Under the pieces are notes generated by a model, which saw nothing but the letters and a program-made list of their open reading frames with translations, did not search any database and had not been told where the DNA came from. Shown here in pieces: positions 502 to 19,146 of a stretch of DNA of 19,557 bases (position 1 is its first letter; each line of letters begins with the position of its first letter). Location: the IMG/VR virus record IMGVR_UViG_2529293142_000017, positions 1-19,557 of that record; one strand, 5' to 3'. Both the position numbers and the translations under genes were made by a program. This DNA is from a virus (taxonomy: Duplodnaviria; Heunggongvirae; Uroviricota; Caudoviricetes).

Positions 502-1231
502 GACAGCAGTCCTCTGGCCTTAAGCTCTGCTCCCTGCTGGTCTATTTTGTCCTGCCACACCTTGCGCTGTGCCGGTGTGCCTGCCACCTCATAATCCATG
601 TGCGGGAGTGTTGCCGCTGACAGTCCGGTCAGCCGGAGAACCGGCTCACCGGTGAGGCTGATTTGCATCTGTTTTATTTTCTGTTCCAGCGATGATTTCA
701 CCTGCTGCATGACAGCCTTTTCCGGTGCGACGTAGCCCTGATGGCCGGTGGTGTTGGCGAGCGGATTTTCCTGTACCAGAATGCTCAGATGCATTGCCCG
801 GACAAGCGCCTCACAGGTTTCATTCAGGGCGTGTTCCAGCTCATGCTCTGCATACAGACTCAGCAGGTGATGATGTGCCTTCCGGTAGGCGGTGGCCGTG
901 CTGTCACACGCCCCTTTCAGGCGTTCACGTTCAAAATTCAGCACCACGGCCAGATTGTCATATTCCTGTACCAGCTCCCGGCGTGCCACGCGCTCAATGT
1001 GGCGCTGTTTCAGCTCGTCGCTCAGGACACCACCGGCTGCACGAAAGGCTGTGCGCCAGTCATCAGCGTCATTTCCGTCGGCCTGCGCCAGCGCATTTTT
1101 TCCTGCTCTGCCCGTTCAATGGCCTTGACGGTCTCATCCATCAGTCGGGCGTTCTCAAGGTGGGCGGCTCTGGCCTTTTCCAGTTGTGCCAGTGCGGGTT
1201 GCAGATATTCAGGGATGGTGTTGTCAGACAT
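498..1231 (-). pseudogene. sid: sid-like capsid size-determination gene interrupted by a single-base frameshift in a homopolymer
   Basis: N-terminal reading frame starts at ATG 1231 (MSDNTIPEYLQPALAQLEKARAAHLENARLMDET...) behind a GAGGAG RBS and stops at 1022. The C-terminal frame (498-989 in the ORF track, ...ARRELVQEYDNLAVVLNFERERLKG...) stays open upstream to the same point. The two frames meet at a T6 run (1096-1101); one extra base would give one continuous 244-aa ORF. Confidence 0.8.
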
Positions 1232-1265
1232 TTTCCGGCTCCTCGTCACTTCAGGTTAAGAAAAT

Positions 1266-1321
1266 TGTGACGTACACCGGACAACAACACGACGCATTGC
1301 AGATGTGCCAGTCCTGACACA
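1266..1321 (-). promoter_or_regulatory. Candidate Delta/Ogr-responsive late promoter for sid, with two TGT-N12-ACA dyads
   Basis: TGT-N12-ACA at 1304-1321 and again at 1266-1283. With transcription leftward into sid, the dyad centres sit about 55 and 18 bp upstream of a start near 1257, ahead of the GAGGAG RBS. P2/P4 late promoters are known to carry this dyad near -55. Confidence 0.45.
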
Positions 1322-1400
1322 GGAGACTCATCCTCAGACCGGCAAGCCAGGAAAAGGTCGCAGGAAAAACCGGCTTACTGTTTGTTTTTTTATATTTTAC

Positions 1401-1513
1401 TGTTCACCTCTGTTCACCATAAGAAAAAAGATAAGTAATACAGTAAGTTAAAGGGTGAACAATCGCAGTAATGACTGTTCACCGTCTGTTCACCACTGTT
1501 CACCCGTTCATGG
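1401..1513. repeat. Cluster of 6-7 TGTTCACC iterons (alpha-protein-type origin iterons)
   Basis: TGTTCACC at 1401, 1411, 1477, 1487 and 1497, inverted GGTGAACA at 1454, degenerate GTTCATGG at 1506, followed by an AT-rich stretch (1515-1600). Same octamer as in the repeats downstream of alpha, about 4.8 kb away. Confidence 0.65.
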
Positions 1514-1662
1514 ACTTTTTGTGCTGTTTATTACTTTTTATTTTTATTAATTAACTGAAATAAATAAGAAAAAACAATTTGTATTTCACTATAATTTTTT
1601 CCAGCTCCTTCCAGAGCGTTTTAAAGCTATCTGGCGCTGATGTGCAAAAAACACACAGCCAT

Positions 1663-1680
1663 TGTAAGGCTGCCGGAACA
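1663..1680 (+). promoter_or_regulatory. Candidate rightward Delta/Ogr-type late promoter dyad upstream of vis
   Basis: TGT-N12-ACA (TGTAAGGCTGCCGGAACA) centred about 110 bp upstream of the vis start codon, divergent from the sid promoter dyads. Confidence 0.35.
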
Positions 1681-1782
1681 AATCCCCCCTGTTGCGTCTG
1701 CCAAAAATATTCACAAAATAAAGCGCTACCCGAAGCCGGACGGACTTATCCGGTGCTGTATGGACATTAACGAGGTAGCCCG

Positions 1783-2049
1783 ATGCAAGCTGTTTTTTCT
1801 TCCCCGTCTCCTGCCCCTGTGACGCCACTGATGCCGCTGCCGGACATCACGCAGGAGCGTTTTTTACGTCTGCCGGAAGTGATGCACCTGTGCGGCCTGT
1901 CACGCTCGACCATCTATGAACTCATCCGTAAGGGGGAATTTCCGCCGCAGGTGAGTCTTGGCGGTAAAAATGTGGCCTGGCTGCACTCTGAAATCACCGC
2001 ATGGATGGCCGGGCGCATTGCCGGACGCAAACGGGGGTACGACGCATGA
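1783..2049 (+). CDS. vis: AlpA/Vis-family helix-turn-helix regulator (88 aa)
   Basis: GAGG RBS 7 nt before ATG 1783. The [28 protein letters not shown] segment is the AlpA/Vis-type HTH. Size and position (first gene rightward of the divergent late promoters) match P4 vis. Confidence 0.8.
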
Positions 2050-2084
2050 TGATGCCCGCTCTGCAAAAAGTCCCTTTTTCTGGC

Positions 2085-2114
2085 TTGCCTTTTTCCGGCA
2101 TTTGCGGATATAGT
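2085..2114 (+). promoter_or_regulatory. Candidate sigma70 promoter (TTGCCT-N17/18-TATAGT) at the head of a structured leader
   Basis: Hexamers at 2085-2090 and 2108-2114, immediately followed by a perfect 7-bp hairpin (2121-2140). Position corresponds to the early leftward promoter and immunity region of P4-type elements. Confidence 0.3.
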
Positions 2115-2177
2115 TTTTCTGCTGCCGCAAAATCGGCAGCCGGGCGTGGAAACCCGAGCAATTCACAGGCGACATAT

Positions 2178-2199
2178 GACGCGCCATGCGTCTTTTTTT
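2178..2199 (+). terminator. Small intrinsic-terminator-like hairpin within the leader
   Basis: GACGC-GCCAT-GCGTC stem-loop followed by T7 (2193-2199), about 70 nt downstream of the candidate promoter. Confidence 0.35.
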
Positions 2200-2447
2200 G
2201 TGTCGCAATCAACGCCACAGAGCGCCAGATTATGGTGTGGTGTGTGGTCAGTCGTGCAGATGGCATTCCGTGCATCCTGCCCGCGTCCGCTCATTATGCC
2301 GCAGAGTCAATGGTAGCTCAGGCGGGGCAGCCTCCGGGCTGGCCGGTATCCTGTGAAGCCGGTATTTCCACCCCCGTCTGGGCTATCGCCATCGAGCGTG
2401 GAAACTCCGGCGATAGCGTTATTTGCTATTCACAGGAGGCTGCCATC

Positions 2448-2645
2448 ATGGCTACAACCCTTACCCCCTCACACCCTGAATTTGTCTTTGTGTTTGCGGC
2501 TGTCCGTCGCGCAGACCGTCATCCCCGTATCTGCATGCTTCGCACCGTCGCCGGTGATGAACGCAGTGCCCGCCGTTCCCTTGTCCGTGACTATGTGCTC
2601 TCCCTTGCTGCCCGTCTGCCGGTGGTGGAGGTGTCCCGTGCGTAA
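2448..2645 (+). CDS. Hypothetical small protein (65 aa)
   Basis: AGGAGG RBS (2434-2439) 8 nt before ATG 2448. Its stop overlaps the GTG start of the next gene, consistent with translational coupling. It is the 3' part of the long 2001-2645 open frame. Confidence 0.4.
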
Positions 2646-2925
2646 TAAAAAAGCCCCTCAGACCGTCTCAGCGCGTCATGACGCCCGTGAACACCTCAGC
2701 ATTGAGGCTTACCATAAGCTCAACCGCGCCAGCGCCGTATCCCAGTTTGTTGGGGGTGATTTGATTCACCGTGAACTCTCCGGCCTGCATCAGCTCTACA
2801 TTCCGCATATTTTCAGCTACCTGAATGAAGATATTGATTTTGTGCTGAATGAGCTGAAAGCCAAAGGCCTGTGCCGCGATTTTCTCGCCCAGCAGAAAGA
2901 CCGGGGAGACAGGACGCATGTTTGA
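2638..2925 (+). CDS. Hypothetical small protein (95 aa); candidate epsilon-like derepression protein by position and size only
   Basis: GGAGG RBS (2626-2630) 7 nt before GTG 2638. Lies in the same operon ahead of alpha. No motif recognised. Confidence 0.5.
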
Positions 2926-3331
2926 TTTTCCCCAGCCCGGTGAGATTTACCGTTCTGCCGGTTTTCCCGATGTGGCCGTGGTCGGCATTCTGGAAGACGG
3001 TATTCCGTGGGAAATGCCGTACCGCTGCCCGGACATTGTCTGGAACCCGTACCGCCGTAAATTCAGTATCCTTGTGCGTATCCTCGCTGACGGGCGCACC
3101 ACAGACATCCCGCTGGGGCGTTTTCTGCGGGAATTTACCTGTGACCGTCCTGACCTGTTTAAACGCAGCCCCGTAAACCGGCATGCGGTACTGAAAGAAA
3201 TGGCCGGAGACCCGGAATTACAGAAATGGCGGGAGAAATATCTGGATATTTACCCGCAGGCCCCCTGTTCCGGTCAGCCGGGCGGCACCGGTGGCGCGGG
3301 AATGGCGGGAAATTCCCCGCACGGAGCCTGA
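2918..3331 (+). CDS. Hypothetical protein (137 aa), P4-type left-operon gene
   Basis: GGGGAG RBS about 9 nt before ATG 2918. Start overlaps the previous stop. Codon usage matches the neighbouring GC-rich genes. Confidence 0.55.
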
Positions 3332-3510
3332 CCCGGAAATCACCCCGGATAACAGTTACCGCAATTATCTGTAAATTAAAAAACGACCCCCGAAAAATTA
3401 AATGTGCGTATTCGCGCAGGGATACGCACGTCTTCAGGAGACGCAGATATGCCTTATCAGTTAATGCAACCGGCACGGAATGCAGTCATCTGTCACAGGG
3501 AGGAAAACAA

Positions 3511-3831
3511 ATGAAAACACCCTTACCGCCCGTCTTACGCGCTGCCCTTTACCGTCGCGCTGTCGCCTGTGCCTGGCTGACCGTGTGCGAACGTCAGCAC
3601 CGCTACCCGCATCTCACCCTTGAGTCACTGGAGGCGGCCATCGCCGCTGAGCTGGAAGGCTTTTATCTGCGCCAGCACGGTGAGGAAAAAGGGCGTCAGA
3701 TAGCCTGTGCCCTGCTGGAAGATTTAATGGAATCCGGCCCCCTGAAGGCCGCGCCGTCGCTGTCCTTTCTCGGGCTGGTTGTGATGGATGAACTCTGTGC
3801 CCGTCACATAAAAGCGCCGGTACTGCACTGA
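3511..3831 (+). CDS. Hypothetical protein (106 aa) immediately upstream of alpha
   Basis: AGGGAGG RBS (3497-3503) 7 nt before ATG 3511. Stop lies 14 nt before the alpha start. It is the in-frame 3' part of the 3226-3831 ORF. Confidence 0.6.
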
Positions 3832-3845
3832 AGGAGAACAACACC

Positions 3846-6179
3846 ATGAAAATGAACGTAACCGCCACCGTCAGCCATGCACTCGGCCACTGGCCGCGTA
3901 TCCTCCCGGCGCTGGGGATTCAGGTGCTGAAGAACCGTCATCAGCCCTGTCCGGTCTGTGGCGGGAGTGACCGCTTCCGTTTGGATGACAGGGAGGGGCG
4001 CGGCACCTGGTACTGCAATCAGTGTGGTGCCGGTGACGGCCTGAAACTGGTTGAAAAGGTGTTTGGTGTTTCCCCGTCCGATGCGGCCGCAAAGGTGGCT
4101 GCCGTGACCGGCAGCCTGCCCCCGGCTGACCCGGCAGTGACGGCTGCCGCCGGTGCTGAAACAGACGCTGCCCGGAAGAACGCCGCCGCACTGGCACAAA
4201 CCCTGATGGCGAAAACCCGTCCCGGAACCGGTAACGCCTACCTGACCCGCAAGGGCTTTCCCGGCCGGGAATGCCGGATGCTGACCGGCACACACAGAGC
4301 CGGTGGCGTGAGCTGGCGTGCCGGTGACCTTGTGGTGCCACTGTATGACGACAGCGGCGAACTGGTTAACCTTCAGTTAATCAGTGCTGACGGCCGTAAG
4401 CGCACCCTGAAAGGCGGACAGGTCAGGGGCACCTGTCACACCCTTGAAGGACAGAATCAGGCCGGAAAACGTCTGTGGATAGCGGAGGGATACGCGACCG
4501 CACTTACCGTGCATCACCTGACCGGTGAAACGGTGGTGGTGGCGCTTTCTTCCGTGAATCTCCTTTCTCTGGCCAGCCTTGCCCGGCAGAAGCATCCGGC
4601 CTGTCAGATTGTCCTTGCTGCTGACCGTGACCTCAGCGGTGACGGCCAGAAAAAAGCCGCCGCAGCCGCAGATGCGTGTGAAGGTGTTGTTGCCCTGCCG
4701 CCGGTCTTCGGTGACTGGAATGATGCCTTCACGCAGTACGGCGGGGAAGCCACCCGTAAGGCCATTTATGATGCCATCCGGCCACCGGCTGAAAGCCCGT
4801 TCGACACCATGAGCGAAGCGGAGTTTTCCGCCATGAGTACCAGCGAAAAGGCCATGCGTATCTATGAGCATTACGGCGAGGCGCTCGCGGTCGATGCCAA
4901 CGGCCAGCTTCTGTCCCGCTATGAAAATGGTGTCTGGAAGGTGCTGCCGCCACAGGACTTTGCCCGGGATGTGGCCGGGCTGTTTCAGCGTCTGCGCGCG
5001 CCGTTCTCCTCCGGGAAGGTGGCCTCCGTGGTGGACACCCTGAAGCTGATTATTCCGCAGCAGGAAGCCCCCTCCCGCCGCCTGATTGGCTTTCGTAACG
5101 GCGTGCTCGACACGCAGAACGGCACGTTCCACCCGCACAGTCCGTCACACTGGATGCGCACCCTGTGTGATGTGGATTTCACCCCGCCAGTGGAAGGGGA
5201 AACGCTGGAAACCCACGCCCCCGCGTTCTGGCGCTGGCTTGACCGTGCCGCCGGTGGCCGTGCGGAAAAACGCGACGTGATTCTGGCCGCACTGTTTATG
5301 GTGCTGGCAAACCGCTACGACTGGCAGCTCTTTCTGGAGGTGACCGGTCCCGGCGGCAGCGGCAAAAGTATCATGGCCGAAATAGCCACCCTGCTGGCCG
5401 GGGAGGATAACGCCACATCGGCCACCATTGAGACGCTGGAATCCCCGCGTGAACGTGCCGCGTTAACTGGCTTCTCACTGATACGCCTGCCGGACCAGGA
5501 AAAATGGAGCGGCGACGGTGCCGGACTCAAGGCCATCACCGGCGGCGATGCGGTGTCCGTTGACCCGAAATACCGGGATGCGTACTCCACGCACATCCCG
5601 GCGGTGATTCTGGCCGTGAACAATAACCCGATGCGCTTCACCGACCGCAGCGGCGGCGTGTCACGCCGGCGGGTGATTATTCACTTCCCTGAACAGATAG
5701 CCCCGCAGGAGCGCGACCCGCAGCTTAAGGACAAAATCACCCGCGAGCTGGCGGTCATCGTGCGTCACCTGATGCAGAAATTCAGCGACCCGATGCTCGC
5801 CCGGTCACTGCTTCAGTCCCAGCAAAACTCAGACGAGGCGCTGAACATCAAACGGGATGCCGACCCGACGTTTGATTTTATCGGCTATCTGGAAACCCTG
5901 CCGCAGACCAGCGGCATGTATATGGGGAACGCCAGTATCATCCCGCGCAATTACCGTAAATACCTCTATCACGCCTATCTGGCCTACATGGAGGCAAACG
6001 GCTACCGGAATGTACTCAGTCTGAAAATGTTCGGGCTGGGGCTGCCGGTGATGCTGAAGGAATACGGACTGAATTACGAGAAGCGCCATACCAAACAGGG
6101 GATACAGACCAACCTGACGCTGAAAGAGGAAAGCTACGGCGACTGGCTGCCAAAATGTGACGACCCTGCAACAATCTGA
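3846..6179 (+). CDS. alpha: P4 alpha-type multifunctional replication protein (zinc-binding primase, TOPRIM, P-loop helicase, C-terminal origin-binding region)
   Basis: 777-aa ORF with AAGGAG RBS. N-terminal CPVCGG...CNQCG zinc motif, EGYATALTVH (TOPRIM-like) and Walker A VTGPGGSGKS. Same length as P4 alpha, and flanked downstream by iteron repeats. Confidence 0.95.
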   Translation: MKMNVTATVSHALGHWPRILPALGIQVLKNRHQPCPVCGGSDRFRLDDREGRGTWYCNQCGAGDGLKLVEKVFGVSPSDAAAKVAAVTGSLPPADPAVTAAAGAETDAARKNAAALAQTLMAKTRPGTGNAYLTRKGFPGRECRMLTGTHRAGGVSWRAGDLVVPLYDDSGELVNLQLISADGRKRTLKGGQVRGTCHTLEGQNQAGKRLWIAEGYATALTVHHLTGETVVVALSSVNLLSLASLARQKHPACQIVLAADRDLSGDGQKKAAAAADACEGVVALPPVFGDWNDAFTQYGGEATRKAIYDAIRPPAESPFDTMSEAEFSAMSTSEKAMRIYEHYGEALAVDANGQLLSRYENGVWKVLPPQDFARDVAGLFQRLRAPFSSGKVASVVDTLKLIIPQQEAPSRRLIGFRNGVLDTQNGTFHPHSPSHWMRTLCDVDFTPPVEGETLETHAPAFWRWLDRAAGGRAEKRDVILAALFMVLANRYDWQLFLEVTGPGGSGKSIMAEIATLLAGEDNATSATIETLESPRERAALTGFSLIRLPDQEKWSGDGAGLKAITGGDAVSVDPKYRDAYSTHIPAVILAVNNNPMRFTDRSGGVSRRRVIIHFPEQIAPQERDPQLKDKITRELAVIVRHLMQKFSDPMLARSLLQSQQNSDEALNIKRDADPTFDFIGYLETLPQTSGMYMGNASIIPRNYRKYLYHAYLAYMEANGYRNVLSLKMFGLGLPVMLKEYGLNYEKRHTKQGIQTNLTLKEESYGDWLPKCDDPATI

Positions 6180-6195
6180 CCCTCATGACTCATCT

Positions 6196-6219
6196 GACCG
6201 GCATCTGCCGGTCTTTTTT
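6196..6219 (+). terminator. Rho-independent terminator after alpha
   Basis: GACCGG-CATCTG-CCGGTC hairpin followed by T6, 17 nt after the alpha stop. Confidence 0.6.
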
Positions 6220-6238
6220 ATCCCTGAATTCCCCGAAG

Positions 6239-6536
6239 GTGAACAATCCACTGTTCACCCTTCACCGTGTATTCACCCGTTATCACACTGAAATTAAAAG
6301 AGAAAAACGAAAGGTGAACAGTGTGAACAATCAAATCAAAAAAAACTTTTTTTTCTCCCTGTGTGATTTCAGTACGGGGGATTAATCACCGGTATGAGTC
6401 ACACCGGCAGAATGCCGGAGGTGAAGAATCGAATGTTCACCCTTCACCCATTATTCACCACCTATCATACTGAAATAAAAGGAGAAAAAGAAAGGTGAAC
6501 AGTGTGAACAGTTCTTCCGAAAAAAATTTTTTCTTA
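6239..6536. repeat. Two ~120-bp direct repeats, each with several TGTTCACC/GGTGAACA iterons (crr-like cis replication region)
   Basis: Copy A is about 6239-6358 and copy B about 6420-6536, roughly 60 bp apart and about 85 percent identical by eye. Each holds GGTGAACA, TGTTCACC, TTCACC and TATTCACC variants plus GGTGAACAGTGTGAACA, and each ends in an A-run/T-run tract (A8-C-T8 and A7-T6). Confidence 0.7.
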
Positions 6537-6651
6537 CTTTTAATTGTGTAAAAAACAGGCGATGCGCGCAGTGTGTATAGATATGTGTATAGTTATATTT
6601 TTTGAATATAATAATATCTTATAAATCAATGCTTTAACTTGCAATATTCAT

Positions 6652-6669
6652 TCCTATTATCGGCACCAT
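6652..6669 (+). repeat. Attachment-site core copy (left): 18 bp identical to 19004-19021, with the form of a tRNA 3' end
   Basis: TCCTATTATCGGCACCAT reads as T-stem 3' half, acceptor 3' half, discriminator A and CCA. No D arm or anticodon arm lies upstream, so it is a partial tRNA copy. It sits about 115 bp after the crr-like repeats. Confidence 0.7.
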
Positions 6670-7274
6670 CAAGAAAATCAATAACTTAGCTTAACTTCTC
6701 TAAGAAATTGTATCTTCTGTTATCACTTACAAACGCCTATACGTTGTTATGGGCTTTGGTAGTGTAACACGTATGGGCGAGTAGTTCCCAAGCTCAACCT
6801 CGTAACAAGTTCCTTTGAAGCTGGAAGACGTGCCACCGTCTCTAAACCTTCTACCAAAACTCTTAGCAAGATGTTCCACACCTGGCGCGGTGTCCAATGA
6901 TGCTACACGTCGTGAGACGTTGCAGAGGATAAACAGGCTAAATGATGGGAAGAGTTTTAAGTGCAATAGTGGATTAAAGCCCACCTCTTCAAAACCTAAC
7001 TTGATCGGGAAAGAATCAAGCTCTAGCACGGTTTCGTCCACCGGAGTACAACGGGTGCCTGATAAGAGAAGAACTGCTAAGACTTCATAGCTTTTGTGAA
7101 AAAGCCCTTTTTAGTGGATACGCCTACGGCGCTTATTTTTTGGTATAACCATCAAAGGCGCTTTATGGCTTCTATTGTCTTGAAAATGTATCTTTACTTG
7201 TATTGTGTTTTATGCGTAGTCTCCCTGTGTAGTATGTAACTTGTTAATTTTCATATGAATACAGAGGCAACACG

Positions 7275-7433
7275 ATGAAAAACATTGCAGCTATAAAACG
7301 TAATAACCGCAAGATTCACGCTCGTAAGTTCCTGTCTACGCCAGAAGGAAAAGCCTGGTTAGAGCGTAAACAGAGAGAGAACGAAGAAAGAAAACTCCTT
7401 AGTGAGTTGAAATGGCTTAGAGAGGATTTCTGA
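7275..7433 (+). CDS. Possible small basic protein (52 aa), not in the supplied ORF track
   Basis: AGAGG 7 nt before ATG 7275. Encodes MKNIAAIKRNNRKIHARKFLSTPEGKAWLERKQRENEERKLLSELKWLREDF, a charged helical peptide. Too short for compositional support. Confidence 0.3.
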   Translation: MKNIAAIKRNNRKIHARKFLSTPEGKAWLERKQRENEERKLLSELKWLREDF

Positions 7434-7700
7434 AAATCTCCAGAACGCAACAGGACGCATTCTAACGCTGTTTTCATTGCTTGATATAGGGATGTATAGG
7501 TGGTGTGTGTTTAATGCGTCTGTGAGCTTGTTTTGTGCCTTATTTTGCATTTTCATAATGCAGAAGAGAACACGGAAAGCCTTAAAATTAATTATTTGGG
7601 TATTTAAGGCTATTTTCAGGTTATTTAAGGGTATTAAACTTGATTTAATTGGTTGAAATATAAACAGATAGTTCTGTATCTTATTGATTTATAAGGTTAT

Positions 7701-7780
7701 TTTTAAATAAAGGTAAATAAAAAATAAATAGCCATAAATAGCTATAAATACATCTAAATACCTATAAATCCCTTTGAATA
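7701..7780. repeat. Eight tandem 10-bp units ending in ATAAATA (helically phased A/T repeat)
   Basis: ttttaaataa, aggtaaataa, aaaataaata, gccataaata, gctataaata, catctaaata, cctataaatc, cctttgaata. The exact 10-bp period predicts intrinsically bent DNA. Confidence 0.6.
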
Positions 7781-7884
7781 CATATGAAGCCCTTCCCTTA
7801 TGGCTAGATTGCGAGAGGTGCTTAACGCGATTTTCAGCGCCCCCCGATCTGGAAAATCCAGAATCCCCAAATATCAAGGAGGCA

Positions 7885-8424
7885 TTACGCCTCCTCTTCT
7901 TCCTTCTTAATTCGCTGTACCGTCGAAGGAGCAACATTAAAGATCTCGGCGGTTTTACGCACTGACAGGCCATCAGAAAGGGCTTTCTTTATACCTTCTC
8001 TATCTACTGCTTTTCCATTACCACGCTTTGTAGGATTGACGGCTTGCGCTTCTCGTTTACGTTCTAACATCAGTTCACGTTCACACGTTGCCACTGCCGA
8101 CAACATAGTAAGCATCATTTTTCCCATCGCGCTTGTAATGTCAGCAATGATCCCTTCTTTGTGAAATCGAACAATTACACCACGATTATTAAGCTCTTCC
8201 ACTAAAGCAAGAATGTCTAAGGTGTTACGCCCTAAACGGTCGAGAGAGTGCACGTGTAAGGTGTCGCCTTCTCTCAGATAGGATAAACACGCCTGCAATC
8301 CTGGACGGTTAGTGTCTTTACCTGACAGCTTATCTTCAAAGACTTTATCAAGCGTTACTCCTGCAAGCTGGCGATCAGTGTTCTGATCTACAGTGCTCAC
8401 ACGCTTATAACCGATATTGCTCAT
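7885..8424 (-). CDS. Serine recombinase of the resolvase/DNA-invertase family (179 aa)
   Basis: N-terminal GYKRVSTVDQNTDRQ catalytic-serine motif, internal SLDRLGRN, and C-terminal HTH (TAEIFNVAPSTVQRIKK). AAGAGG RBS before ATG at 8424. Confidence 0.9.
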   Translation of the reverse strand: MSNIGYKRVSTVDQNTDRQLAGVTLDKVFEDKLSGKDTNRPGLQACLSYLREGDTLHVHSLDRLGRNTLDILALVEELNNRGVIVRFHKEGIIADITSAMGKMMLTMLSAVATCERELMLERKREAQAVNPTKRGNGKAVDREGIKKALSDGLSVRKTAEIFNVAPSTVQRIKKEEEEA

Positions 8425-8439
8425 AAAATCCTCTTAATG

Positions 8440-8560
8440 TATCGATTTGGCACTACTTCAATGCAAATGAGTATATCGTATTCATTTGGTCTGTTTCAAG
8501 CCTTATAGGTACGGAATATTACACGATTTAGCTGTATTCATTTGGTATGCCTAATGGATA
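8440..8560. promoter_or_regulatory. Candidate recombinase target or regulatory region with TTTGG-type repeats
   Basis: Direct repeats GTATTCATTTGGT at 8478 and 8535, and imperfect palindromes ATTTGGCA-N-TGCAAAT (8446-8470) and ATTTGGCA-N25-TGCCAAAT (8621-8661), immediately upstream of the recombinase start, where res or inversion sites usually lie. Confidence 0.25.
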
Positions 8561-8994
8561 CACAGGGGAATAGATTAAATGGTGTTCTGTTTATACAGGT
8601 TTATTTGTTAGATCAACAATTTGGCATTTCTAAACAGATGTTTGAACGTTGCCAAATGTCTTGACAACACAAGAAAAGGGCTTGCTATGCCACGCATTAC
8701 ACGAAATAAGGCTGTAAAAACAAAATAAATTTTAAAATTTGCACAAACGAGAAAACTCATTCGACAAATAATAGATTAATTTTTAGCCAACAATTTCTGA
8801 TGGTGCTCTGTAAGCCGCATTACACAAGGCTTTGCGAAAGTGATGTAAAAGTGAAGAAAGTTAACATTGCTCTTTTAAGCTACTTTTTCATTGAATTTTT
8901 AGTATGGAATTACACAGGAATAAGTTAGGGATATTCTATGATTTACACAGGGAATATAGGGGGATTATGGCACACACATAGAAAGGCATTACAC
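8518..8994 (+). repeat. Dispersed direct repeats of ATTACACAGG(A)ATA-type motif, at least 6 copies
   Basis: ATTACAC at 8518, 8696, 8819, 8909 and 8988, TTTACAC at 8942, plus ATACACAGGGGAATAG at 8558. Inverted copies (GTGTAATT) at 9476, 9530 and 9581. AATTACAC-N12-GTGTAATT forms a perfect inverted pair at 9510-9537. Confidence 0.5.
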
Positions 8995-9256
8995 AGAGTG
9001 AGTGCTATGTGACAAATGGATGTAACGAGAGGTTACATTCAGCTATCTGAAATGCTCTTTGTAAGAAAGTTGGTAGTAACGGTAGGTCATAGTGAGCTAG
9101 GGGGTAGGTCACTGTGAACTACAATAAGACTATTAATAAAACTATATTAGATTATTAATTAGATCATAATAATAATATTCTTTATATCTATATATATATG
9201 ATCTTTTGCCTTCCGGCGTTAGCTTCACTCTCTGGCAAGCAACCTTACTCCGCTAC

Positions 9257-9352
9257 CTTTCGGGCTTCGTGGCTGGCCCGTTCCGCTCACACCGAAAGCA
9301 AAGCGTTACTTTCTTCGTGTAACTATCGTTGGCGGTAACGCCCACGAAGAAA
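9257..9352. other. GC-richer island of interleaved inverted repeats inside AT-rich non-coding DNA
   Basis: CTTTCGG (9257) pairs with CCGAAAG (9292); GCGTTAC (9303) with GTAACGC (9335); TTTCTTCGTG (9310) with CACGAAGAAA (9343). The last two pairs cross each other, giving a pseudoknot-like or alternative-hairpin topology. Confidence 0.4.
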
Positions 9353-9631
9353 TACTATTGCGCTGTGCGCAGTAAGAGTAATCACCTAACCAATCATACT
9401 GATTGCTTACGTGTTAACTCTCTCTAACTCTTAATTACCCTCCTACATTTAATAACTCTGTTATTCTCTGTAGTTGTGTAATTACTCGAAGAGAGAGCGG
9501 CTAAAGCTCAATTACACTCTGCTTTCCTCGTGTAATTTCACTAAGCCTCAATACAATTTCACTTCCTACATTCTGTAGTCGTGTAATTGTTTTCGGTGGA
9601 AAAGCCAGAGGCGACACCGAAAGAGAATTCT

Positions 9632-9695
9632 GATCTTATTAATCTTATCTATCTTAGTTAATCTTCTTACTTATCTTACTTAATCTTTATCTACT
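9632..9695. repeat. Phased ATCTTA repeats (about 7 copies, 9-10 bp period) starting with a GATC 13-mer-like element
   Basis: GATCTTATTAATC at 9632-9644 resembles the oriC-type 13-mer class (GATCT + AT-rich), followed by aatcttatct, atcttagtta, atcttcttac, ttatcttact, taatctttat. Confidence 0.45.
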
Positions 9696-10223
9696 TTATT
9701 ATTAATAATAGCTTTATAAGCTCTCTGTAGCTCTCTGACGCAAGAAACAGCATTCAGGAAGGGAATCACCTTAGAAAAGTGTTCTTTGCGTCATAATGTG
9801 TTTTATGAAGGATTCAGAGGTGTTTCATAACAGGAATGTATAGAGGATACGTTAGGTAATTAAAAATAAGGGGTCTAAATGCTTCTCTAACAGCATTAAG
9901 CAGGGTAGGGAATGGAAACGCATTGCCTACATATATAATCTCACTACAGAGCTTTACAGAGCGTTTTATAAAGTGACTCTCTATCTTATATCTACCATCA
10001 CCTTTTTATATACCTAACAAATACCAAATAAGCCCCTTAAATAAGCCTCTGGCGAGCTAAACAGCCATTACATAAGGGAATGTATTGCTTTTATCAAAAC
10101 TTCGTTAGAACGCGTTTTAGAGCGTTTTAGACAATAATGAAGAATAGCACTACACAGAAGAGCACGAATTGCTAAGAAAAAATGTAAGTGCATGAAAAAG
10201 ATCAGATTTTTTGTGAAAAGGTA

Positions 10224-10252
10224 TTGACAAATGTTTCTTTATATGTAATAAT
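10224..10252 (+). promoter_or_regulatory. Candidate sigma70 promoter for the plus-strand small-gene operon
   Basis: TTGACA (10224-10229), 16-17 bp spacer, TAATAAT (10246-10252), about 110 bp upstream of the first gene. Confidence 0.5.
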
Positions 10253-10361
10253 AGGTATTAGAGGGACAGAAAAACATTCTTCTCTAAATAATCAAAATCA
10301 ATGCACTTTGAAGCCGTCAGGCTTGCAAGGTGTTTTTCTTTTAACTGAATAAGGAGTTTTT

Positions 10362-10550
10362 ATGAAATGGTTTACACCGAAACACGTCGTCGAGGCATTT
10401 AAAAAAGGTGAGCTAACACGCCACCAGGTAGTAATGAACCGTAATATGGCAAGGAGTCGAGGTTATCCAGAGCGAGCAGCTTGCTTCAATGAAGCACTCA
10501 AGATTATTGATGAACTAAGAAAAAATGAAAAAGAATCTGAAACAGAGTAA
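10362..10550 (+). CDS. Hypothetical small protein (62 aa)
   Basis: AAGGAG RBS 5 nt before ATG. First gene after the promoter. Basic and helical. Confidence 0.5.
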   Translation: MKWFTPKHVVEAFKKGELTRHQVVMNRNMARSRGYPERAACFNEALKIIDELRKNEKESETE

Positions 10551-10569
10551 AGAATAGAAGGAGAAAACT

Positions 10570-10740
10570 ATGAGCGAAACTACAGAAAAGAAAAGACAAC
10601 CACGCACTTGCTTTCATATTCCTGATGAAGTATTTCAGGTGTTGTTTAAAGAAGCCAGAAGTAGACGTATCACTGTTACAGATTACATTCTTGATATGTT
10701 GAAAAGAGAGGCTGAAACACTCTCAAATAAAAGCAAGTGA
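10570..10740 (+). CDS. Probable ribbon-helix-helix (Arc/MetJ/CopG-like) DNA-binding protein (56 aa), not in the ORF track
   Basis: AAGGAG RBS 7 nt before ATG 10570. RTCFHIPDEVFQVLFKEARSRRITVTDYILDMLKRE fits a beta-strand plus two helices. Confidence 0.5.
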   Translation: MSETTEKKRQPRTCFHIPDEVFQVLFKEARSRRITVTDYILDMLKREAETLSNKSK

Positions 10741-10793
10741 TTTTTATCACCATAGTAGCGCCGTAGAGCGTGATTACATCAAGGAGATTTTTA

Positions 10794-11483
10794 ATGATTA
10801 ACCAACTAACTTTTACAAAACACTATGACACGTTTGATAATGTATCAAAGATTTATTCTGATAAATTCCCTCAAGGAAAAGATTTAGATCTATTACATAT
10901 TGTGCTTTATTTTCGATTCCTTAGTTATCAGGAAAACAACCTTAATTGTTATGAAAGTCACGAAACATTAGCTAAGATTTTTAAGTCTTCAGCGTCAACA
11001 ATTAAACGTAAGATAAACGATCTTAAAGAGATGGGATTATTAGAAACATCCCCACATCCTGATCCGTATATTTCATCTTTGATTTACAATGCTCTCCCTC
11101 TCACAGATGCACATATTACTCCCCCAGGAGAATCATCACTCTCTGATCTTTCTGAGGCAGCAGAAGCACAGGAACAACCTAAAGGCCATAAACAGCCTTC
11201 TTTTGATGTTCTTGATGATTGGGATGCGCCTTTGCCGTGGGAGACGGAAGAAACACCTGTTTCATCAAGTGAAAAGGTAGCTAATGATAATGAGGAGGAT
11301 GTGTTAGAGAATTTTGCCTCTCTTATCTGCCAGCAGAAACACACCAGAACAGGAGGGGCATCATTTATAGAATTTGCAAATTCACTAGCTTATAGACACG
11401 GGCTAAAACGACCAAATGGTATTGAGGCATATTTTTCTAAGAATTACCCAAATGTGTATGATGACTTTGATATTCCATTTTAA
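10794..11483 (+). CDS. Winged-helix DNA-binding protein with acidic C-terminal region (229 aa); candidate replication initiator or regulator
   Basis: AAGGAG RBS 7 nt before ATG 10794 (the track's upstream GTG start would cover the RBS). HTH-like segment ESHETLAKIFKSSASTIKRKINDLKEMGLLE. Acidic Ser/Glu-rich C-terminal half. Confidence 0.7.
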   Translation: MINQLTFTKHYDTFDNVSKIYSDKFPQGKDLDLLHIVLYFRFLSYQENNLNCYESHETLAKIFKSSASTIKRKINDLKEMGLLETSPHPDPYISSLIYNALPLTDAHITPPGESSLSDLSEAAEAQEQPKGHKQPSFDVLDDWDAPLPWETEETPVSSSEKVANDNEEDVLENFASLICQQKHTRTGGASFIEFANSLAYRHGLKRPNGIEAYFSKNYPNVYDDFDIPF

Positions 11484-11494
11484 TAAGGAGGGTT

Positions 11495-11773
11495 ATGATT
11501 CAATATTTAGTAAAAAATCAAGTAGACAGAATTCAGTGTAATGACACAGGAAAACGCATCTACGAAACACTTGCTTACCTCTATAAAGGAAAGCCAACAC
11601 CGCTAAAATATAGCGATGTGTTACATCGAGCAGGGTGCTCTGAAGATGGTTTAAAATTCTGGCTGAAACAGCTATCAAATTTCGGTGTTATAGAGATTAA
11701 AGAATTATCTTTCTCTACATTCAATCTCAAAAGACTGGATAAAGAAATAGTATTCATCTATTCCACTCTCTAA
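11495..11773 (+). CDS. Hypothetical protein (92 aa), possible small HTH protein
   Basis: AGGAGGG RBS directly upstream, 11 nt after the previous stop. The YSDVLHRAGCSEDGLKFWLKQLSNFGVIEI segment looks HTH-like. Confidence 0.6.
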   Translation: MIQYLVKNQVDRIQCNDTGKRIYETLAYLYKGKPTPLKYSDVLHRAGCSEDGLKFWLKQLSNFGVIEIKELSFSTFNLKRLDKEIVFIYSTL

Positions 11774-11905
11774 AATCTCTCTATGTAATTAAAATATAAA
11801 AGGAAAACATTATTATGATAGTAGCTATGTATTGGTTATTGTTCTTTCTCACGTTAGAAACATATTTCGGGGTGTTTTCCTTTAAAAGAAAAGGAAAAGT
11901 AAATA

Positions 11906-12313
11906 ATGGCAAAAAGAAAAAACAACGTTGTTAAGAAAATCGGTGATTCAGCTTCTCTTCTAAGTAAACCTAAATCTATTCTAAGACGTAAAGACTTTAA
12001 AGAGCTAGTTACGCTCTCCAAGCAAAATAGCGCCCCTGGCGAATGGAAAACAGAGATCATAGAACATTCTCCCTCTGTGCCTTGTGGAGATGAATTTAAC
12101 GCCTTACAAGAAATCTTATCTTCAACACCTGGCGTATTCTGGAAACCTAGAAAAAGAAAAGAGTATATTGTTGATAGCTCTGATTTACGCAAATACCAGA
12201 TTTTAGGATTTGAAGACTATAACCACTACGTTGGTTATCTCGCCACCAATGGCCTAAATAATTTAGTTCCTGAATTCCATTTAGATAATGATGATCACTA
12301 TGGAGACTTTTAA
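11906..12313 (+). CDS. Hypothetical protein (135 aa)
   Basis: AAAGGAAAAG RBS region before ATG. Basic N-terminus (MAKRKNNVVKK). Same strand and codon style as neighbours. Confidence 0.6.
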   Translation: MAKRKNNVVKKIGDSASLLSKPKSILRRKDFKELVTLSKQNSAPGEWKTEIIEHSPSVPCGDEFNALQEILSSTPGVFWKPRKRKEYIVDSSDLRKYQILGFEDYNHYVGYLATNGLNNLVPEFHLDNDDHYGDF

Positions 12314-12314
12314 T

Positions 12315-12653
12315 ATGAACAAAAACACGTATGATACAATTTACTCACTAATTAATTATTATGAGGATGATTACCTCCTGCCTTTAAACCGCGCTGAACT
12401 TGAAGCATATAAAGAAAATACACCATCGGCACTAAATGAGGCGTTTAAACACTGGGATCTAGCTGTGAATGCCTTGGAGCACCTCTTTAAGCGTGTAGAG
12501 ATGCTCTGTAAGCGCGAAAACGCATATCTGACAGCGGATCAGATATGGGAGCTATCAAACTGGATAGAAGATATTGAATCTGATGTTCGCTATGTGGGAG
12601 ATGGCCTTATCGAACTCGCACAACGCTTAGGCGCTGCTATCACAGAAGAATAA
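12315..12653 (+). CDS. Hypothetical protein (112 aa)
   Basis: GGAG 9 nt before ATG 12315, which lies 1 nt after the previous stop. The track's earlier start (12288) overlaps the upstream gene and has no RBS. Confidence 0.6.
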   Translation: MNKNTYDTIYSLINYYEDDYLLPLNRAELEAYKENTPSALNEAFKHWDLAVNALEHLFKRVEMLCKRENAYLTADQIWELSNWIEDIESDVRYVGDGLIELAQRLGAAITEE

Positions 12654-12682
12654 AAAAAGCAACAAAAAAGTTGTAAAATATC

Positions 12683-12711
12683 TTGACATTTCATATATTG
12701 TATGTTAATAT
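12683..12711 (+). promoter_or_regulatory. Near-consensus sigma70 promoter (TTGACA-N17-TAATAT)
   Basis: Hexamers at 12683-12688 and 12706-12711 in the intergenic gap after the 112-aa gene. Confidence 0.55.
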
Positions 12712-12909
12712 AATTATATGGGGTGATTATTTTTCCTTTATTGGTTCGATATTAAAAATTCTTCTTGTCGTTAAAGGGGAGTAAAATCTCCGCTCCCCGC
12801 TTCTCCTCCTTAAGTAAATACTGTGTCATTATTACCTCTTTTTTCCTTTGTTATGCATACATCTTGGAGTATGCATAACATAGGGTAATTACATAGGTAC
12901 AAGTTAATA

Positions 12910-12941
12910 AAAGGCGGCTCTAAATGCTGCCTTTTATTTTG
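12910..12941 (+). terminator. Intrinsic-terminator-like hairpin ending a ~200-nt ORF-free leader
   Basis: AAAGGCGGC-TCTAAAT-GCTGCCTTT (9-bp stem with one G-T) followed by TATTTTG. Lies between the strong promoter and the next gene start at 13003. Confidence 0.5.
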
Positions 12942-13002
12942 CCCGTTATGCAACTTAAAAGTTGTATTTCTTACTTTAAACAAGGTAACAAGGTTTATAT
13001 AA

Positions 13003-13215
13003 ATGTTGTTTTTAAACGATAAAGAGCAAATCATCAAGTATAAAGATGAAATGCTGAAAATTAATCCACAAATTACCGAAATGGTAGCTAAATACGCTGG
13101 GTGTTCTGTCGAGGAAGTAGAAAGATGTGTTGAAAAATATTTTTCTCCTTCTTCTCCGTCTACACCTTCCCTTAATGAATTAATCAAATTAAAAGCTAAG
13201 GAGATTACTAAATGA
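13003..13215 (+). CDS. Hypothetical small protein (70 aa)
   Basis: Weak RBS (AAGG about 12 nt upstream). Stop overlaps the next start (ATGA). Confidence 0.45.
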   Translation: MLFLNDKEQIIKYKDEMLKINPQITEMVAKYAGCSVEEVERCVEKYFSPSSPSTPSLNELIKLKAKEITK

Positions 13216-13574
13216 TTATTGATTTAGACACTCTATTTCCAGTTCGAAAGACTTTCACAGATATTGTAAGTTATTGTACTGATCCGTTTGCCTCTGTAGA
13301 AAGCAAGGTTTTTGCTTCTCTTCCTGCTGATGTTGAATGCGGAGACTTGATCACCAGCACTGGCGCTAAATATGAATCAGGAGATGATATCTATGTTGTT
13401 ATGAGTGAATTTTTAACGGCTGGAGAAAATAAGCCTGTAGATGTTTTACGTAGCAATGCTGGCCTTGTCTGCATCAAATCTGATGCGCTGAATGCTGTAA
13501 GTGAAGCAGCAAAAACAGCATTAATTAAAAAAGGCTTCCAGCTTGAAGGGTTCCATTCTGTTTTCACTTCTTAA
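13212..13574 (+). CDS. Hypothetical protein (120 aa)
   Basis: AAGGAG RBS 8 nt before ATG, overlapping the previous stop. Acidic protein. Confidence 0.6.
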   Translation: MIIDLDTLFPVRKTFTDIVSYCTDPFASVESKVFASLPADVECGDLITSTGAKYESGDDIYVVMSEFLTAGENKPVDVLRSNAGLVCIKSDALNAVSEAAKTALIKKGFQLEGFHSVFTS

Positions 13575-13592
13575 TAAAAGGAATAATAATAA

Positions 13593-14621
13593 ATGATTTT
13601 AGGTAATGATTACGTTGATTTAGCTCCTCTGTTCTCTGCGCATAGCACTAGAAACTATCTGCTTTCTACTCTTGATTTTACGGATTCTGTAGGGGTTACA
13701 TCTCATAAAGTAGCTGTTTCCCAGCTTGTCGAAAGCAACGAATCTCTGTTCAACAAAGAAACCTCTCGTTTCTCTTCTGAACACAACGTTACTAAGCGTG
13801 AACAAGGCAAAGAATATCTTATCGAAATCCCGTACTTTTTAAGGCAAGACCTGATCAAACCGCAGGACGTGCAAGGCAAGCGTAAGCCTGGCACTGATTT
13901 TCAGGAAACACTCACTGATATCTATGCTGACTATGTTGCTAAACACCACGTAGCGTATCAGCGCACTAAAGAAAGCGTATTGGCTGCTTCTTTGTTTAGT
14001 GGTCGCACCTATACCCCGAAAACTGACGATGTTCTTATCGAGTGGGGCAAGCTGTTTAACGTATCAGCTATGAAAGCCACTGTGAACGCTTCCAGCACTG
14101 ACACCACGAAGATTTTTAAAGAATTTGATCAGATTGCTACGAATATTATCGACAGAGCACAAAGCCAGGCGGCTGCTGTAGAAAGAATTGTTGTTTTCTG
14201 TAAACCTGACGCCTTCTCTGCAATTCGATTCTCTGCTGGTATGGCAAACGCATTCCAGTATGTAAGCCCACTGGAAGAGGGGAATGTTGTGTATCAGCGT
14301 CGTGACCTGCTGCCAGGGGTGACAGCGTTCACTATCCCAGGAACTAACATTGATGTTGTTAAACTGGTAGATCCGCTACACCTTGCACATATGACCGCAG
14401 ACGCTGTAGCTGTTCCGAAGTTTGCTAAAGGCTCTAATGTATATCAGAACATCTACGGGGCTGCTTCCAGCACCTTTGAACTGATTAATGCCGCTCCTGC
14501 TGAGGTGTACAGCTATAGCTATGAATCTTCTCGTGGTGATGCTGTTAACGTTGTTACAGAGAATAGCCAGATGGTGGTAAACCACGGCGTTGGCTTCTCT
14601 GTTCAAATCACTGTTAAATAA
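13593..14621 (+). CDS. Hypothetical protein (342 aa) with virion-structural-like composition; candidate major structural protein
   Basis: RBS-like AAAGGAA before ATG. Rich in Ala/Ser/Thr/Val/Asn with no Cys-rich or nucleotide-binding motifs. Followed by a strong terminator, as is common after highly expressed structural genes. No family recognised from sequence. Confidence 0.8.
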   Translation: MILGNDYVDLAPLFSAHSTRNYLLSTLDFTDSVGVTSHKVAVSQLVESNESLFNKETSRFSSEHNVTKREQGKEYLIEIPYFLRQDLIKPQDVQGKRKPGTDFQETLTDIYADYVAKHHVAYQRTKESVLAASLFSGRTYTPKTDDVLIEWGKLFNVSAMKATVNASSTDTTKIFKEFDQIATNIIDRAQSQAAAVERIVVFCKPDAFSAIRFSAGMANAFQYVSPLEEGNVVYQRRDLLPGVTAFTIPGTNIDVVKLVDPLHLAHMTADAVAVPKFAKGSNVYQNIYGAASSTFELINAAPAEVYSYSYESSRGDAVNVVTENSQMVVNHGVGFSVQITVK

Positions 14622-14640
14622 CATTTTAACGTGTAATAGA

Positions 14641-14673
14641 GGCGTGGCGTGTATTCACGCTTCGCCTTTTTTT
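14641..14673 (+). terminator. Rho-independent terminator
   Basis: Nested GC stem (GGCG...GCGTG-TATT-CACGC...CGCC) followed by T7, 20 nt after the 342-aa gene stop. Confidence 0.65.
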
Positions 14674-14707
14674 ATTTATTTTTTAAATTTTGAGAGGTGA
14701 TTAAAAT

Positions 14708-14911
14708 ATGGAAGTGATTCTGAAATCAAAAAATGGTGTACACGTACATTTAGATGCTAATGATTCTAGAGGATTGTTAAATCTGAAATATCTATGTTCT
14801 CTCCTAGATGTTCCATATGAAGGAGTAAAAGCCCGTATGTTCAGACTAAACGAGAGTATTGATCAAGCTCTACACCATTTCTTAAGTAAAGAAGGTGGTA
14901 AAAATGATTAA
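14708..14911 (+). CDS. Hypothetical small protein (67 aa)
   Basis: GAGAGGTGA RBS 7 nt before ATG. First gene after the terminator. Confidence 0.5.
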   Translation: MEVILKSKNGVHVHLDANDSRGLLNLKYLCSLLDVPYEGVKARMFRLNESIDQALHHFLSKEGGKND

Positions 14912-14925
14912 TAAGGGGATTTTAA

Positions 14926-16755: not shown

Positions 16756-16786
16756 TTCCCGCCATAACATTACAAGGAAAATTATT

Positions 16787-17500: not shown

Positions 17501-17542
17501 CTGTAAATGCCTCTAAAACGCTCTGTAACGATGTAATTATAA

Positions 17543-17573
17543 AAGAGGCTACCAATCTATGTTGAAGCCTCTT
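17543..17573. terminator. Hairpin between convergent genes (possible bidirectional terminator)
   Basis: AAGAGGC-N17-GCCTCTT with flanking A/T, between the 237-aa gene stop (17500) and the integrase stop (17582). Confidence 0.45.
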
Positions 17574-17581
17574 TATTGCGT

Positions 17582-18946: not shown

Positions 18947-19003
18947 TCAATTAGTAATGGTCGTAGGTGATGGCATTAACACGAGATTAATCGAGTGTTT
19001 TAC

Positions 19004-19021
19004 TCCTATTATCGGCACCAT
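19004..19021 (+). repeat. Attachment-site core copy (right): 18 bp identical to 6652-6669
   Basis: TCCTATTATCGGCACCAT, then AAAATCAA shared with the left copy after a 1-3 nt difference. A 10-mer GGTCGTAGGT resembling a tRNA T-arm lies 35 bp upstream (18959-18968). Confidence 0.7.
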
Positions 19022-19146
19022 TAAAATCAAAGAGTTACCCCATATTTAAATACACCACGTTTCCTCCTGTGCCGCATTTGTGCCATTGTAACCTTGGCAA
19101 TTCATCAAAATACTGTTCTGACATCAGGCAGTGCAGGTGCAGCTAT

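Follow-up and report, generated by a model that had tools for sequence, protein, structure and literature searches.

A candidate res/resolvase module in a thrW-integrated, satellite-like element of Escherichia coli

Introduction

On which DNA site does a small serine recombinase act when its gene stands alone, with neither a transposase nor a second crossover site in its neighbourhood? The window, i.e. the whole stretch of 19,557 nucleotides analysed in this study, raises this question. The original prediction had recognised the resolvase/invertase catalytic signature in a 179-aa protein and direct and inverted TTTGG repeats just upstream of its gene. It had proposed that the enzyme either resolves multimers or inverts a segment, with an unknown target. 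We argue below that the gene and the site upstream of it probably constitute a self-contained res/resolvase module, which would resolve multimers of the 12.35-kb element in which it resides and would regulate its own synthesis.

Location of the recombinase gene

The window stems from a hot spot of integration in the E. coli chromosome, the tRNA-Thr gene thrW. Positions 6652-19557 are 99.8% identical to strain 20KM2762 (NZ_CP151063.1), and the match starts within the tRNA-Thr annotated there, in its 3' end. Two att repeats delimit a thrW-integrated element of 12,352 bp, the main features of which are as follows.

6652..6668, plus strand: attL, a 17-bp copy of the 3' end of tRNA-Thr (thrW); exact repeat, aligning with the tRNA-Thr of NZ_CP151063.1
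about 8562-10190: ORF-free, repeat-rich stretch of 1.7 kb
10362-10740: two small ORFs
10794-11483: Rep-like protein, matching PHROG replication-initiator families only (best phrog_270, 2.6e-9)
13593-14621: Phage_cap_E major capsid homologue
14926-16755: 609-aa protein with a match to a tape-measure PHROG
16787-17500: Dit-like tail protein
17582-18859, minus strand: tyrosine integrase, adjoining attR
19004..19020, plus strand: attR, an exact repeat of the 17-bp copy at 6652

Another element, which is P4-like, lies in positions 1-6651; it has a primase ORF (3846-6179) and matches to C4/isrK RNA (2108-2393). The recombinase gene lies in the 12,352-bp element, between attL and the ORF-free stretch. 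The gene and the elements adjoining it are listed below; subsites are given without strand.

7868..7895, minus strand: terminator-like hairpin over the stop codon, at the 3' edge of the module (terminator scan and palindromic stem)
7885..8424, minus strand: coding sequence of a serine recombinase of the resolvase type (ORF and translation, Pfam, PDB, dN/dS)
8429..8433, minus strand: Shine-Dalgarno-like GAGGA, 4 nt before the ATG, read from the sequence
8439..8474: candidate res subsite III, 36 bp, GTATCGATTTGG-N12-GCAAATGAGTAT on the plus strand
8470..8499, minus strand: sigma-70-like promoter of the recombinase gene (consensus scan, 10/12 matches)
8478..8512: candidate res subsite II, 35 bp, GTATTCATTTGG-N11-CCTTATAGGTAC on the plus strand
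8534..8561: candidate res subsite I, the putative crossover site, 28 bp (12-4-12), GTATTCATTTGG-TATG-CCTAATGGATAC on the plus strand

The recombinase

The ORF starts with ATG and encodes 179 aa followed by a stop codon, with the catalytic domain at the N-terminus and the HTH at the C-terminus. Residues 4-128 matched the Pfam family Resolvase (PF00239, E=7e-34), and residues 141-174 gave matches to HTH_7/HTH_38 slightly under the cut-offs. The PHROG match was phrog_125 (2e-55). Among the PDB structures, gamma-delta resolvase (3e-29) and Gin (2e-27) were matched, and Tn3 resolvase also aligns. The recombinase and gamma-delta resolvase align end to end, and the catalytic set is complete: Y6, R8, S10, D31, R40, D62, R63, R66, E115, R116, E121 and R122 of the recombinase are equivalent to Y6, R8, S10, D36, R45, D67, R68, R71, E118, R119, E124 and R125 of gamma-delta resolvase. 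In the alignment these residues are kept throughout the clade of the recombinase. The protein, with both of its domains, belongs to the small serine recombinases (resolvase/invertase family), and the signature seen at the outset is confirmed.

Comparison with the allele in L005, which has 93% nucleotide identity, gave a dN/dS of 0.077; the recombinase gene is under strong purifying selection. Membership in an anti-phage defence system was also considered and was rejected, as the recombinase had no match among the PADLOC 2023 defence models.

An array of half-sites upstream of the gene

The 19.5-kb window has 12 copies of ATTTGG, which is no overall enrichment. Five of the 12 copies, four direct and one inverted, fall within the 213 bp from 8445 to 8657, and a 13-nt exact repeat, GTATTCATTTGGT, is present in two copies 56 bp apart. 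The direct and inverted repeats described upstream of the gene are indeed there, but only the three proximal TTTGG copies are part of the recombinase module. The two distal copies (8619-8624 and 8652-8657) belong to the backbone of the element and persist in elements without the recombinase. Likewise, the ATTTGGCA inverted pair at 8619-8626 and 8650-8657, 25 bp apart, is backbone and is kept in E. coli O26:H11 11368, which does not carry the module.

A half-site pattern, CCAAATSRRTAY, described the module part of the repeats. With at most one mismatch allowed, it gave 8 matches against 1.28 expected, and none of 200 shuffles reached 8. Five of the 8 matches fall in 8439-8561. If the GTAT end of the half-sites is taken as the outer one, the upstream region contains six 12-bp half-sites of the TGTAYYSATTWGG type, which pair into three inverted repeats, the candidate subsites I, II and III.

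Subsite I, with the central dinucleotide AT at 8547-8548, marks the 5' edge of the module and is the subsite most distant from the gene. Of the arms, the outer one of subsite II matches least well, with 3 mismatches, yet it is 75% invariant in the orthologues described below; at the position of subsite II, the relative L008 has ACCCATAAGG. The -10 box and the likely transcription start overlap with subsite III, which is proximal to the gene. The geometry of the array is I 28 / gap 21 / II 35 / gap 3 / III 36 bp, ending 15 nt before the ATG, and the whole candidate res measures 123 bp (8439-8561).

The geometry was compared with that of Tn3 res, which we re-derived from the annotated Tn3 copy in the record of phage P7: I 28 / gap 22 / II 34 / gap 5 / III 25 bp, ending 6 nt before the ATG of tnpR. 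The spacer differences given in PMC9943657 agree with this re-derived site, and the 'three resolvase dimers' mentioned in PMC2602789 are consistent with it. The candidate array is Tn3-like in geometry, except that subsite III is longer by about one helical turn. As a sequence pattern, it has the three inverted-repeat dimer sites of the Tn3 type and a symmetric distal crossover site with a central 2 bp.

The pairing of the arms in subsites II and III is our assignment and depends on the choice of the outer end of the half-site. A 12-3-12 palindrome at 8463-8489 could also be paired as a single dimer site. We preferred the pairing with outer GTAT because the six arms then form three pairs, because the sole 28-bp symmetric site then stands at the distal end, and because relatives have the outer TGTA/GTATTC motif in common. 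This motif recurs in L012, L017, L019 and L021, and its recurrence supports the chosen orientation.

The predicted promoter consists of a -35 box, TTGAAA (8499-8494), a spacer of 18 nt and a -10 box, TATACT (8475-8470). As a consensus match only, it overlaps subsites II and III. GGCTTG and TAnACT are kept in the orthologues within the promoter region. The resolvases of Tn3 and gamma-delta are autorepressors. As in these Tn3-type systems, occupancy of subsites II and III would repress the recombinase gene.

At the other end of the gene, a T-rich tail (TGATATTT, 7869-7876) comes after the hairpin stem AGGAGGC-gtaat-GCCTCCT (7877-7895) on the gene strand. The terminator scan called this hairpin on the plus strand; its assignment to the minus strand is based on the palindromic stem and the T-rich tail. 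A junction motif, AAATATCA, is common to all contexts in which the module was found. It was considered as a recombination core and rejected, since the T-tract of the terminator accounts for it better.

Comparison with orthologues and relatives

Two metagenomic contigs (L099 and L100) encode orthologues of the recombinase with 82% identity. The nucleotide homology between the window and these contigs spans exactly 7868-8562, from the outer edge of subsite I to the terminator tail. Within res, 56 of the 72 half-site columns are invariant in the 82% orthologues, against 29 of the 65 other columns (Fisher p=9e-5); this test covers four sequences in two groups, with half-sites defined on the window itself. 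In subsite III, 83-92% of the half-site columns are invariant in the orthologues and the spacer varies. The centre of subsite I, CATA, is invariant in the four sequences. Both arms of subsite I are changed in L099 and L100, with the inverted repeat retained.

More distant relatives have arrays of their own. Two other E. coli elements (L003 and L004) carry a 63%-identical allele in the same slot, with its own repeat set of the GTGTAGTGAT type and a palindrome of 28-32 bp farthest from the gene. A 58%-identical gene on a plasmid of 1,985 bp (L007) has an array of the ATTACTAC type at the same position. Seven half-sites were counted in L015, against a control maximum of 4, and half-sites of the TGTC type lie upstream in L016, L043 and L048.

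Relatives with 52-58% identity are borne on plasmids of 2-5.8 kb, and a 69%-identical relative lies on a plasmid-like, circle-like contig of 4.4 kb that was found in many samples. Apart from the recombinase and its array, the plasmids of ~2 kb consist solely of 1.4 kb of ORF-free DNA. On such plasmids the resolvase can hardly serve for anything but multimer resolution. We also considered whether these recombinase-only plasmids are circles excised by the resolvase. This was rejected, since the copy in pYUSHP31-1 is flanked by two IS26 copies and not by res.

Boundaries and distribution of the module

The gene and res form a discrete module of 695 bp (7868-8562). Homology to L099, L100 and L005 stops at 7868, and that to L099 and L100 also stops at 8562. 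The module was found as a single colinear piece in 156 of 5,426 complete E. coli genomes. In O26:H11 11368 and its relatives, positions 7876-8552 are replaced by 384 bp with a 78-aa ORF. The homology break at 8552 is located 4 bp from the centre of subsite I, leaving the outer arm in place. Many related elements, of which that of O26:H11 11368 is an example, are without the module. The module is therefore dispensable for its host element.

A hypervariable cargo slot (7434-7868) adjoins the module. In relatives, this slot contains a GmrSD-type restriction gene (in one of them), unknown genes, or nothing. Neither a transposase nor a large ORF was found between attL and the ORF-free region, and the recombinase is the only ORF of more than 104 aa between attL (6652) and the Rep-like gene. 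The module is therefore not the cointegrate system of a transposon. With no linked tnpA and with homology ending at 7868 and 8562, it is not the resolvase of a Tn3-family transposon.

Comparison with known systems

A neighbour-joining tree, computed without bootstrap, included the Tn1721 TnpR copy from phage SJ46, Gin and a P2-type Hin-like protein. In this tree, which supplies the family placement called for by the original prediction, the recombinase falls in an enterobacterial clade of stand-alone genes, and the sister group of this clade is formed by the Tn21/Tn1721 TnpR proteins. The Gin/Hin-like proteins, as a separate clade, and the Tn3/gamma-delta resolvases are outgroups. The nearest named relative is Tn1721 TnpR, with 43% identity in the full-length alignment and 50% over residues 4-151 (tblastn). 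Identities are 37-41% to the Gin/Hin type and 37-39% to Tn3/gamma-delta.

The module resembles the Tn3/gamma-delta systems in the architecture and all the catalytic residues of the protein. The candidate res immediately precedes the gene and includes three apparent dimer sites and the predicted promoter; its site I, the most remote from the gene, has 28 bp and a central AT. The gap between sites I and II (21 bp here, 22 bp in Tn3) and the length of site II (35 and 34 bp) are nearly the same. In contrast, site III has 36 bp here and 25 bp in Tn3, the half-site is TGTAYYSATTWGG instead of TGTCYNNTA, and the recombinase is only 39% identical to these proteins, which are an outgroup in the tree. 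The module also has no tnpA and no transposon ends, so that there is no cointegrate to resolve.

The Tn21/Tn1721 TnpR proteins are the closest named relatives. Their gene also lies downstream of res, and they share with the recombinase a segment after 'DRQL' that is shortened relative to gamma-delta. The recombinase, however, belongs to a separate clade, and no transposase follows its gene. Tn1721, like L048, has TGTCAG-type half-sites, unlike those of the window.

Serine resolvases also act in the multimer-resolution systems of plasmids, e.g. RP4 ParA, Sin and the beta recombinase. The module is similar to these systems in being a stand-alone res and resolvase without transposase, with the conversion of multimers to monomers as the expected role. 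These systems sit on plasmids, whereas the module resides in a satellite-like element integrated into the chromosome. Sin and beta use a res of two subsites with an architectural protein; the site in the window apparently has three subsites, as in Tn3.

With Hin, Gin, Cin and Pin the recombinase shares fold, size and 37-41% identity, and databases often label the family 'DNA invertase'. The accessory half-sites distinguish the module from these invertases, as do the lack of an invertible segment and the lack of orientation polymorphism.

Alternative explanations

The label 'DNA invertase', which relatives of the recombinase bear in PHROG and in several database records, raises the possibility that the enzyme works in the manner of Hin/Gin/Cin/Pin, flipping a segment between two inverted crossover sites and thereby switching expression. 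The protein is about as similar to Gin (38-41%) as to Tn3/gamma-delta (39%), and one inverted TTTGG copy (8652-8657) is found nearby. No second half-site cluster, however, was detected on either strand of the window with 0-2 mismatches or with a degenerate pattern. The window thus contains no paired inverted crossover sites, as had been stated from the start, and the ATTTGGCA inverted pair, only 25 bp apart, is kept in elements without the recombinase. A resolvase system predicts a single res per element, which explains why the first reading of the sequence found no partner site. Moreover, in 196 E. coli genomes at least 80% of 6600-10800 is found in a single place on the same strand, with the pieces around the gene colinear. 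Blastn of four loci gave plus-strand pieces only, and no opposite-strand segment around the gene was seen among hundreds of matching E. coli genomes. This colinearity speaks against an inversion switch at the level of populations, not at that of individual reads. In the tree, the protein is not part of the Hin/Gin clade, and a three-subsite array adjoining the gene is the arrangement of a resolvase. We therefore consider inversion extremely unlikely. Of the two activities first proposed, it is the resolution of multimers that gains from the three-subsite array, the grouping with Tn21/Tn1721 TnpR and the relatives on very small plasmids, and the inversion of a segment that loses.

It is also conceivable that the module is a relic of a Tn3-family transposon, a res-tnpR remnant that formerly resolved cointegrates and is now hitch-hiking without a role. 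Its nearest named relative (Tn1721 TnpR, 43-50% identity) and its Tn3-like res geometry would agree with such an origin. A relic is not expected, however, to show the sharp boundaries at 7868-8562 that recur in several unrelated contexts, the strong purifying selection, the conserved half-sites, and at least two diverged alleles in the same slot, each with matching sites; and the stretch from attL to the ORF-free region contains neither a transposase nor a large ORF. The boundaries, the selection and the diverged alleles indicate that the module has long been retained as a working unit and is not decaying. A relic is thus unlikely. To much the same degree we doubt that the module is a hub at which recombination between the res of co-resident elements, or pseudo-sites, swaps the hypervariable and partly defence-carrying cargo. 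The module does adjoin the hypervariable slot (7434-7868), homology breakpoints do recur at its edges, and the O26:H11 break retains the outer arm, with 4 bp between position 8552 and the centre of site I. That break, however, occurs in one lineage only, and the O26 sequence replacing the inner arm has no recognisable half-site. The shared junction motif at the 3' side is explained by the terminator tail, and the 2-kb plasmid relative inside a large plasmid is bounded by IS26 copies and not by res. Resolvases of this type are, in addition, normally limited to directly repeated sites in the same molecule. Finally, the recombinase might be mainly a DNA-binding regulator, which represses its own promoter or neighbouring functions of the element and for which catalysis is irrelevant. 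The promoter-like site buried in the half-site array would fit a regulator, as would the autorepression known from Tn3/gamma-delta resolvases. Yet the whole clade retains all catalytic residues, and repression does not require the symmetric 28-bp site, whose centre is invariant and which lies 35 bp upstream of the -35 box. No other gene adjoins res on its far side. A purely regulatory role thus appears very unlikely.

Proposed role of the module

We return to the explanation that we prefer, a res/resolvase module acting on its own site. The original description of the target as unknown seems too pessimistic, since the module's own candidate res (8439-8561) is the most plausible target. The host is a satellite-like element with its own tyrosine integrase and att sites, and with a Rep-like gene beside an ORF-free, repeat-rich region. 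If this element were extrachromosomal, it could dimerise or multimerise, and a single supercoiled circle would then carry two res as direct repeats. The recombinase dimers bound to subsites II and III of the two res would intertwine, bringing the two copies of site I together. The Ser10 nucleophiles would then cut at the central AT of site I, and subunit rotation would exchange the strands to yield monomers. Since the predicted promoter lies inside subsites II and III, the same binding would repress the synthesis of the recombinase. One res per element, as found in the window, is what such a resolvase system would be expected to have.

Two other partners for the module were considered and rejected. 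For the ORF-free DNA next to the module, Rfam gave no match at the gathering score or at E<=1, and hence no support for a structured RNA partner. Action on the genome of a helper phage was rejected because the res region had no match in 50,697 phage records, even with a word size of 11.

What appears to be new here is a res of Tn3 geometry with a new half-site motif, TGTAYYSATTWGG, in a stand-alone module. In other respects it would be a textbook res/resolvase unit, and a specialist would not be surprised by it. Its practical value lies in the delimited 695-bp module and the 123-bp candidate res, which may be usable as an orthogonal recombination tool. The module also hints at a phase in which its host element replicates as a circle and requires the resolution of multimers.

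The host element

Related elements are present in ~760 of the 5,426 complete E. coli genomes (about 14%). The 12.35-kb element looks like a phage-satellite-type integrative element. It is apparently undescribed: in a limited literature search, we did not find a description of this element family or of satellites of rV5-like phages. The Rep-like protein had no match in PDB or NCBIfam, and the sequence of the element gives a weak suggestion of autonomous replication. Neither a circle nor a multimer of the element was observed; the IMG/VR matches to it are prophage predictions from isolate genomes and are uninformative on packaging. The element has a 42-nt match to rV5-like phages. This match, together with the capsid-gene-bearing element itself, may outrank the recombinase in interest.

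The thrW-integrated element and its P4-like neighbour

The DNA between positions 6652 and 19020 of the window is a thrW-integrated element of 12,352 bp, bounded by att repeats of 17 bp and encoding a tyrosine integrase. Its gene content includes a Phage_cap_E capsid homologue, a tape-measure-like protein and a Dit-like tail protein; neither a portal nor a terminase was detectable in the element. To our knowledge, this element fits none of the P4-like, PICI and cfPICI gene sets. The element family was found in approximately 760 of the 5,426 complete E. coli genomes, and no description of the family was found in literature searches.

Positions 1-6651 are occupied by a second, P4-like element, inserted in tandem at the same tRNA. 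The following features were found in it.

3846-6179, primase-type ORF of 777 aa
2108-2393, C4 antisense RNA, its a1/b1 targets and isrK (Rfam matches)

Variable slot beside the recombinase module

In comparison with related loci (L002, L003 and L005) and two metagenomic contigs (L099 and L100), the segment 7434-7876, which has the attL-proximal conserved block on one side and the recombinase module on the other, was hypervariable. In this slot, a GmrSD-type restriction gene together with HTH genes is found in one relative, and three unknown genes are found in two further relatives. The slot appears to be a hot spot for cargo or defence genes. In the O26:H11 11368 element, a 78-aa ORF substitutes for the recombinase module itself.

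In the present element, an AT-rich tandem array with a 10-bp period (ATAAATAsC, about 7 copies) was observed at 7724-7794. The ORFs in the 430-bp stretch around the array (7434-7868) are all short and unannotated (53-65 aa, and an overlapping one of 94 aa), and related elements have other DNA in place of this stretch.

The array directly precedes a stretch of 42-46 nt at 7806-7848, ttgcgagaggtgcttaacgcgattttcagcgccccccgat, which shows 95.7% identity to phage records and is located immediately 3' of the recombinase terminator. Of the 54 phage records matched by the 7400-9000 query, 15 contained it, and all 15 are rV5-like (Vequintavirus-type) phages with genomes of approximately 146 kb. In Antha, the one phage checked, the matching DNA appears to be noncoding. 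One possibility is that the element has copied this stretch from a helper phage, where it would act in cis in packaging, as an origin or as a promoter; a virulent helper would then be indicated.

ORF-free region and inverted repeat

The 1.7-kb region 8562-10190 is free of ORFs and ranks among the most widely shared parts of 6600-10800 across the element family. It contains the following features.

8819-8997, direct repeats ATTACACAG
9120-9190 and 9630-9720, AT-rich blocks
9195-9375, both strands, GC-rich foldable segment (z of about -2.1)

This region is probably the origin or iteron region for the Rep-like protein encoded at 10794-11483. A possible alternative reading is that it harbors an RNA gene; a match to Rfam was not found in 8562-10190.

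A perfect 8-bp inverted repeat with 23-bp spacing, ATTTGGCA ... TGCCAAAT, was observed in the backbone at 8619-8657. Since this repeat is still present in elements without the recombinase, it does not belong to res, the putative three-subsite array of the recombinase.

Tiny resolvase plasmids

A related resolvase is found on a 1,985-bp plasmid (NZ_CP116175.1) and on similar plasmids of 1,952-2,000 bp from E. coli and Salmonella. The resolvase, 56-58% identical and accompanied by its own half-site array, is their sole database-supported ORF. The other 1.4 kb has a high GC content and contains GGGTTACTCA-type repeats, and neither an ORF of a known family nor an Rfam match was found in it. Within pYUSHP31-1, a plasmid of 104 kb, one copy of this plasmid type is flanked on each side by an IS26 element.
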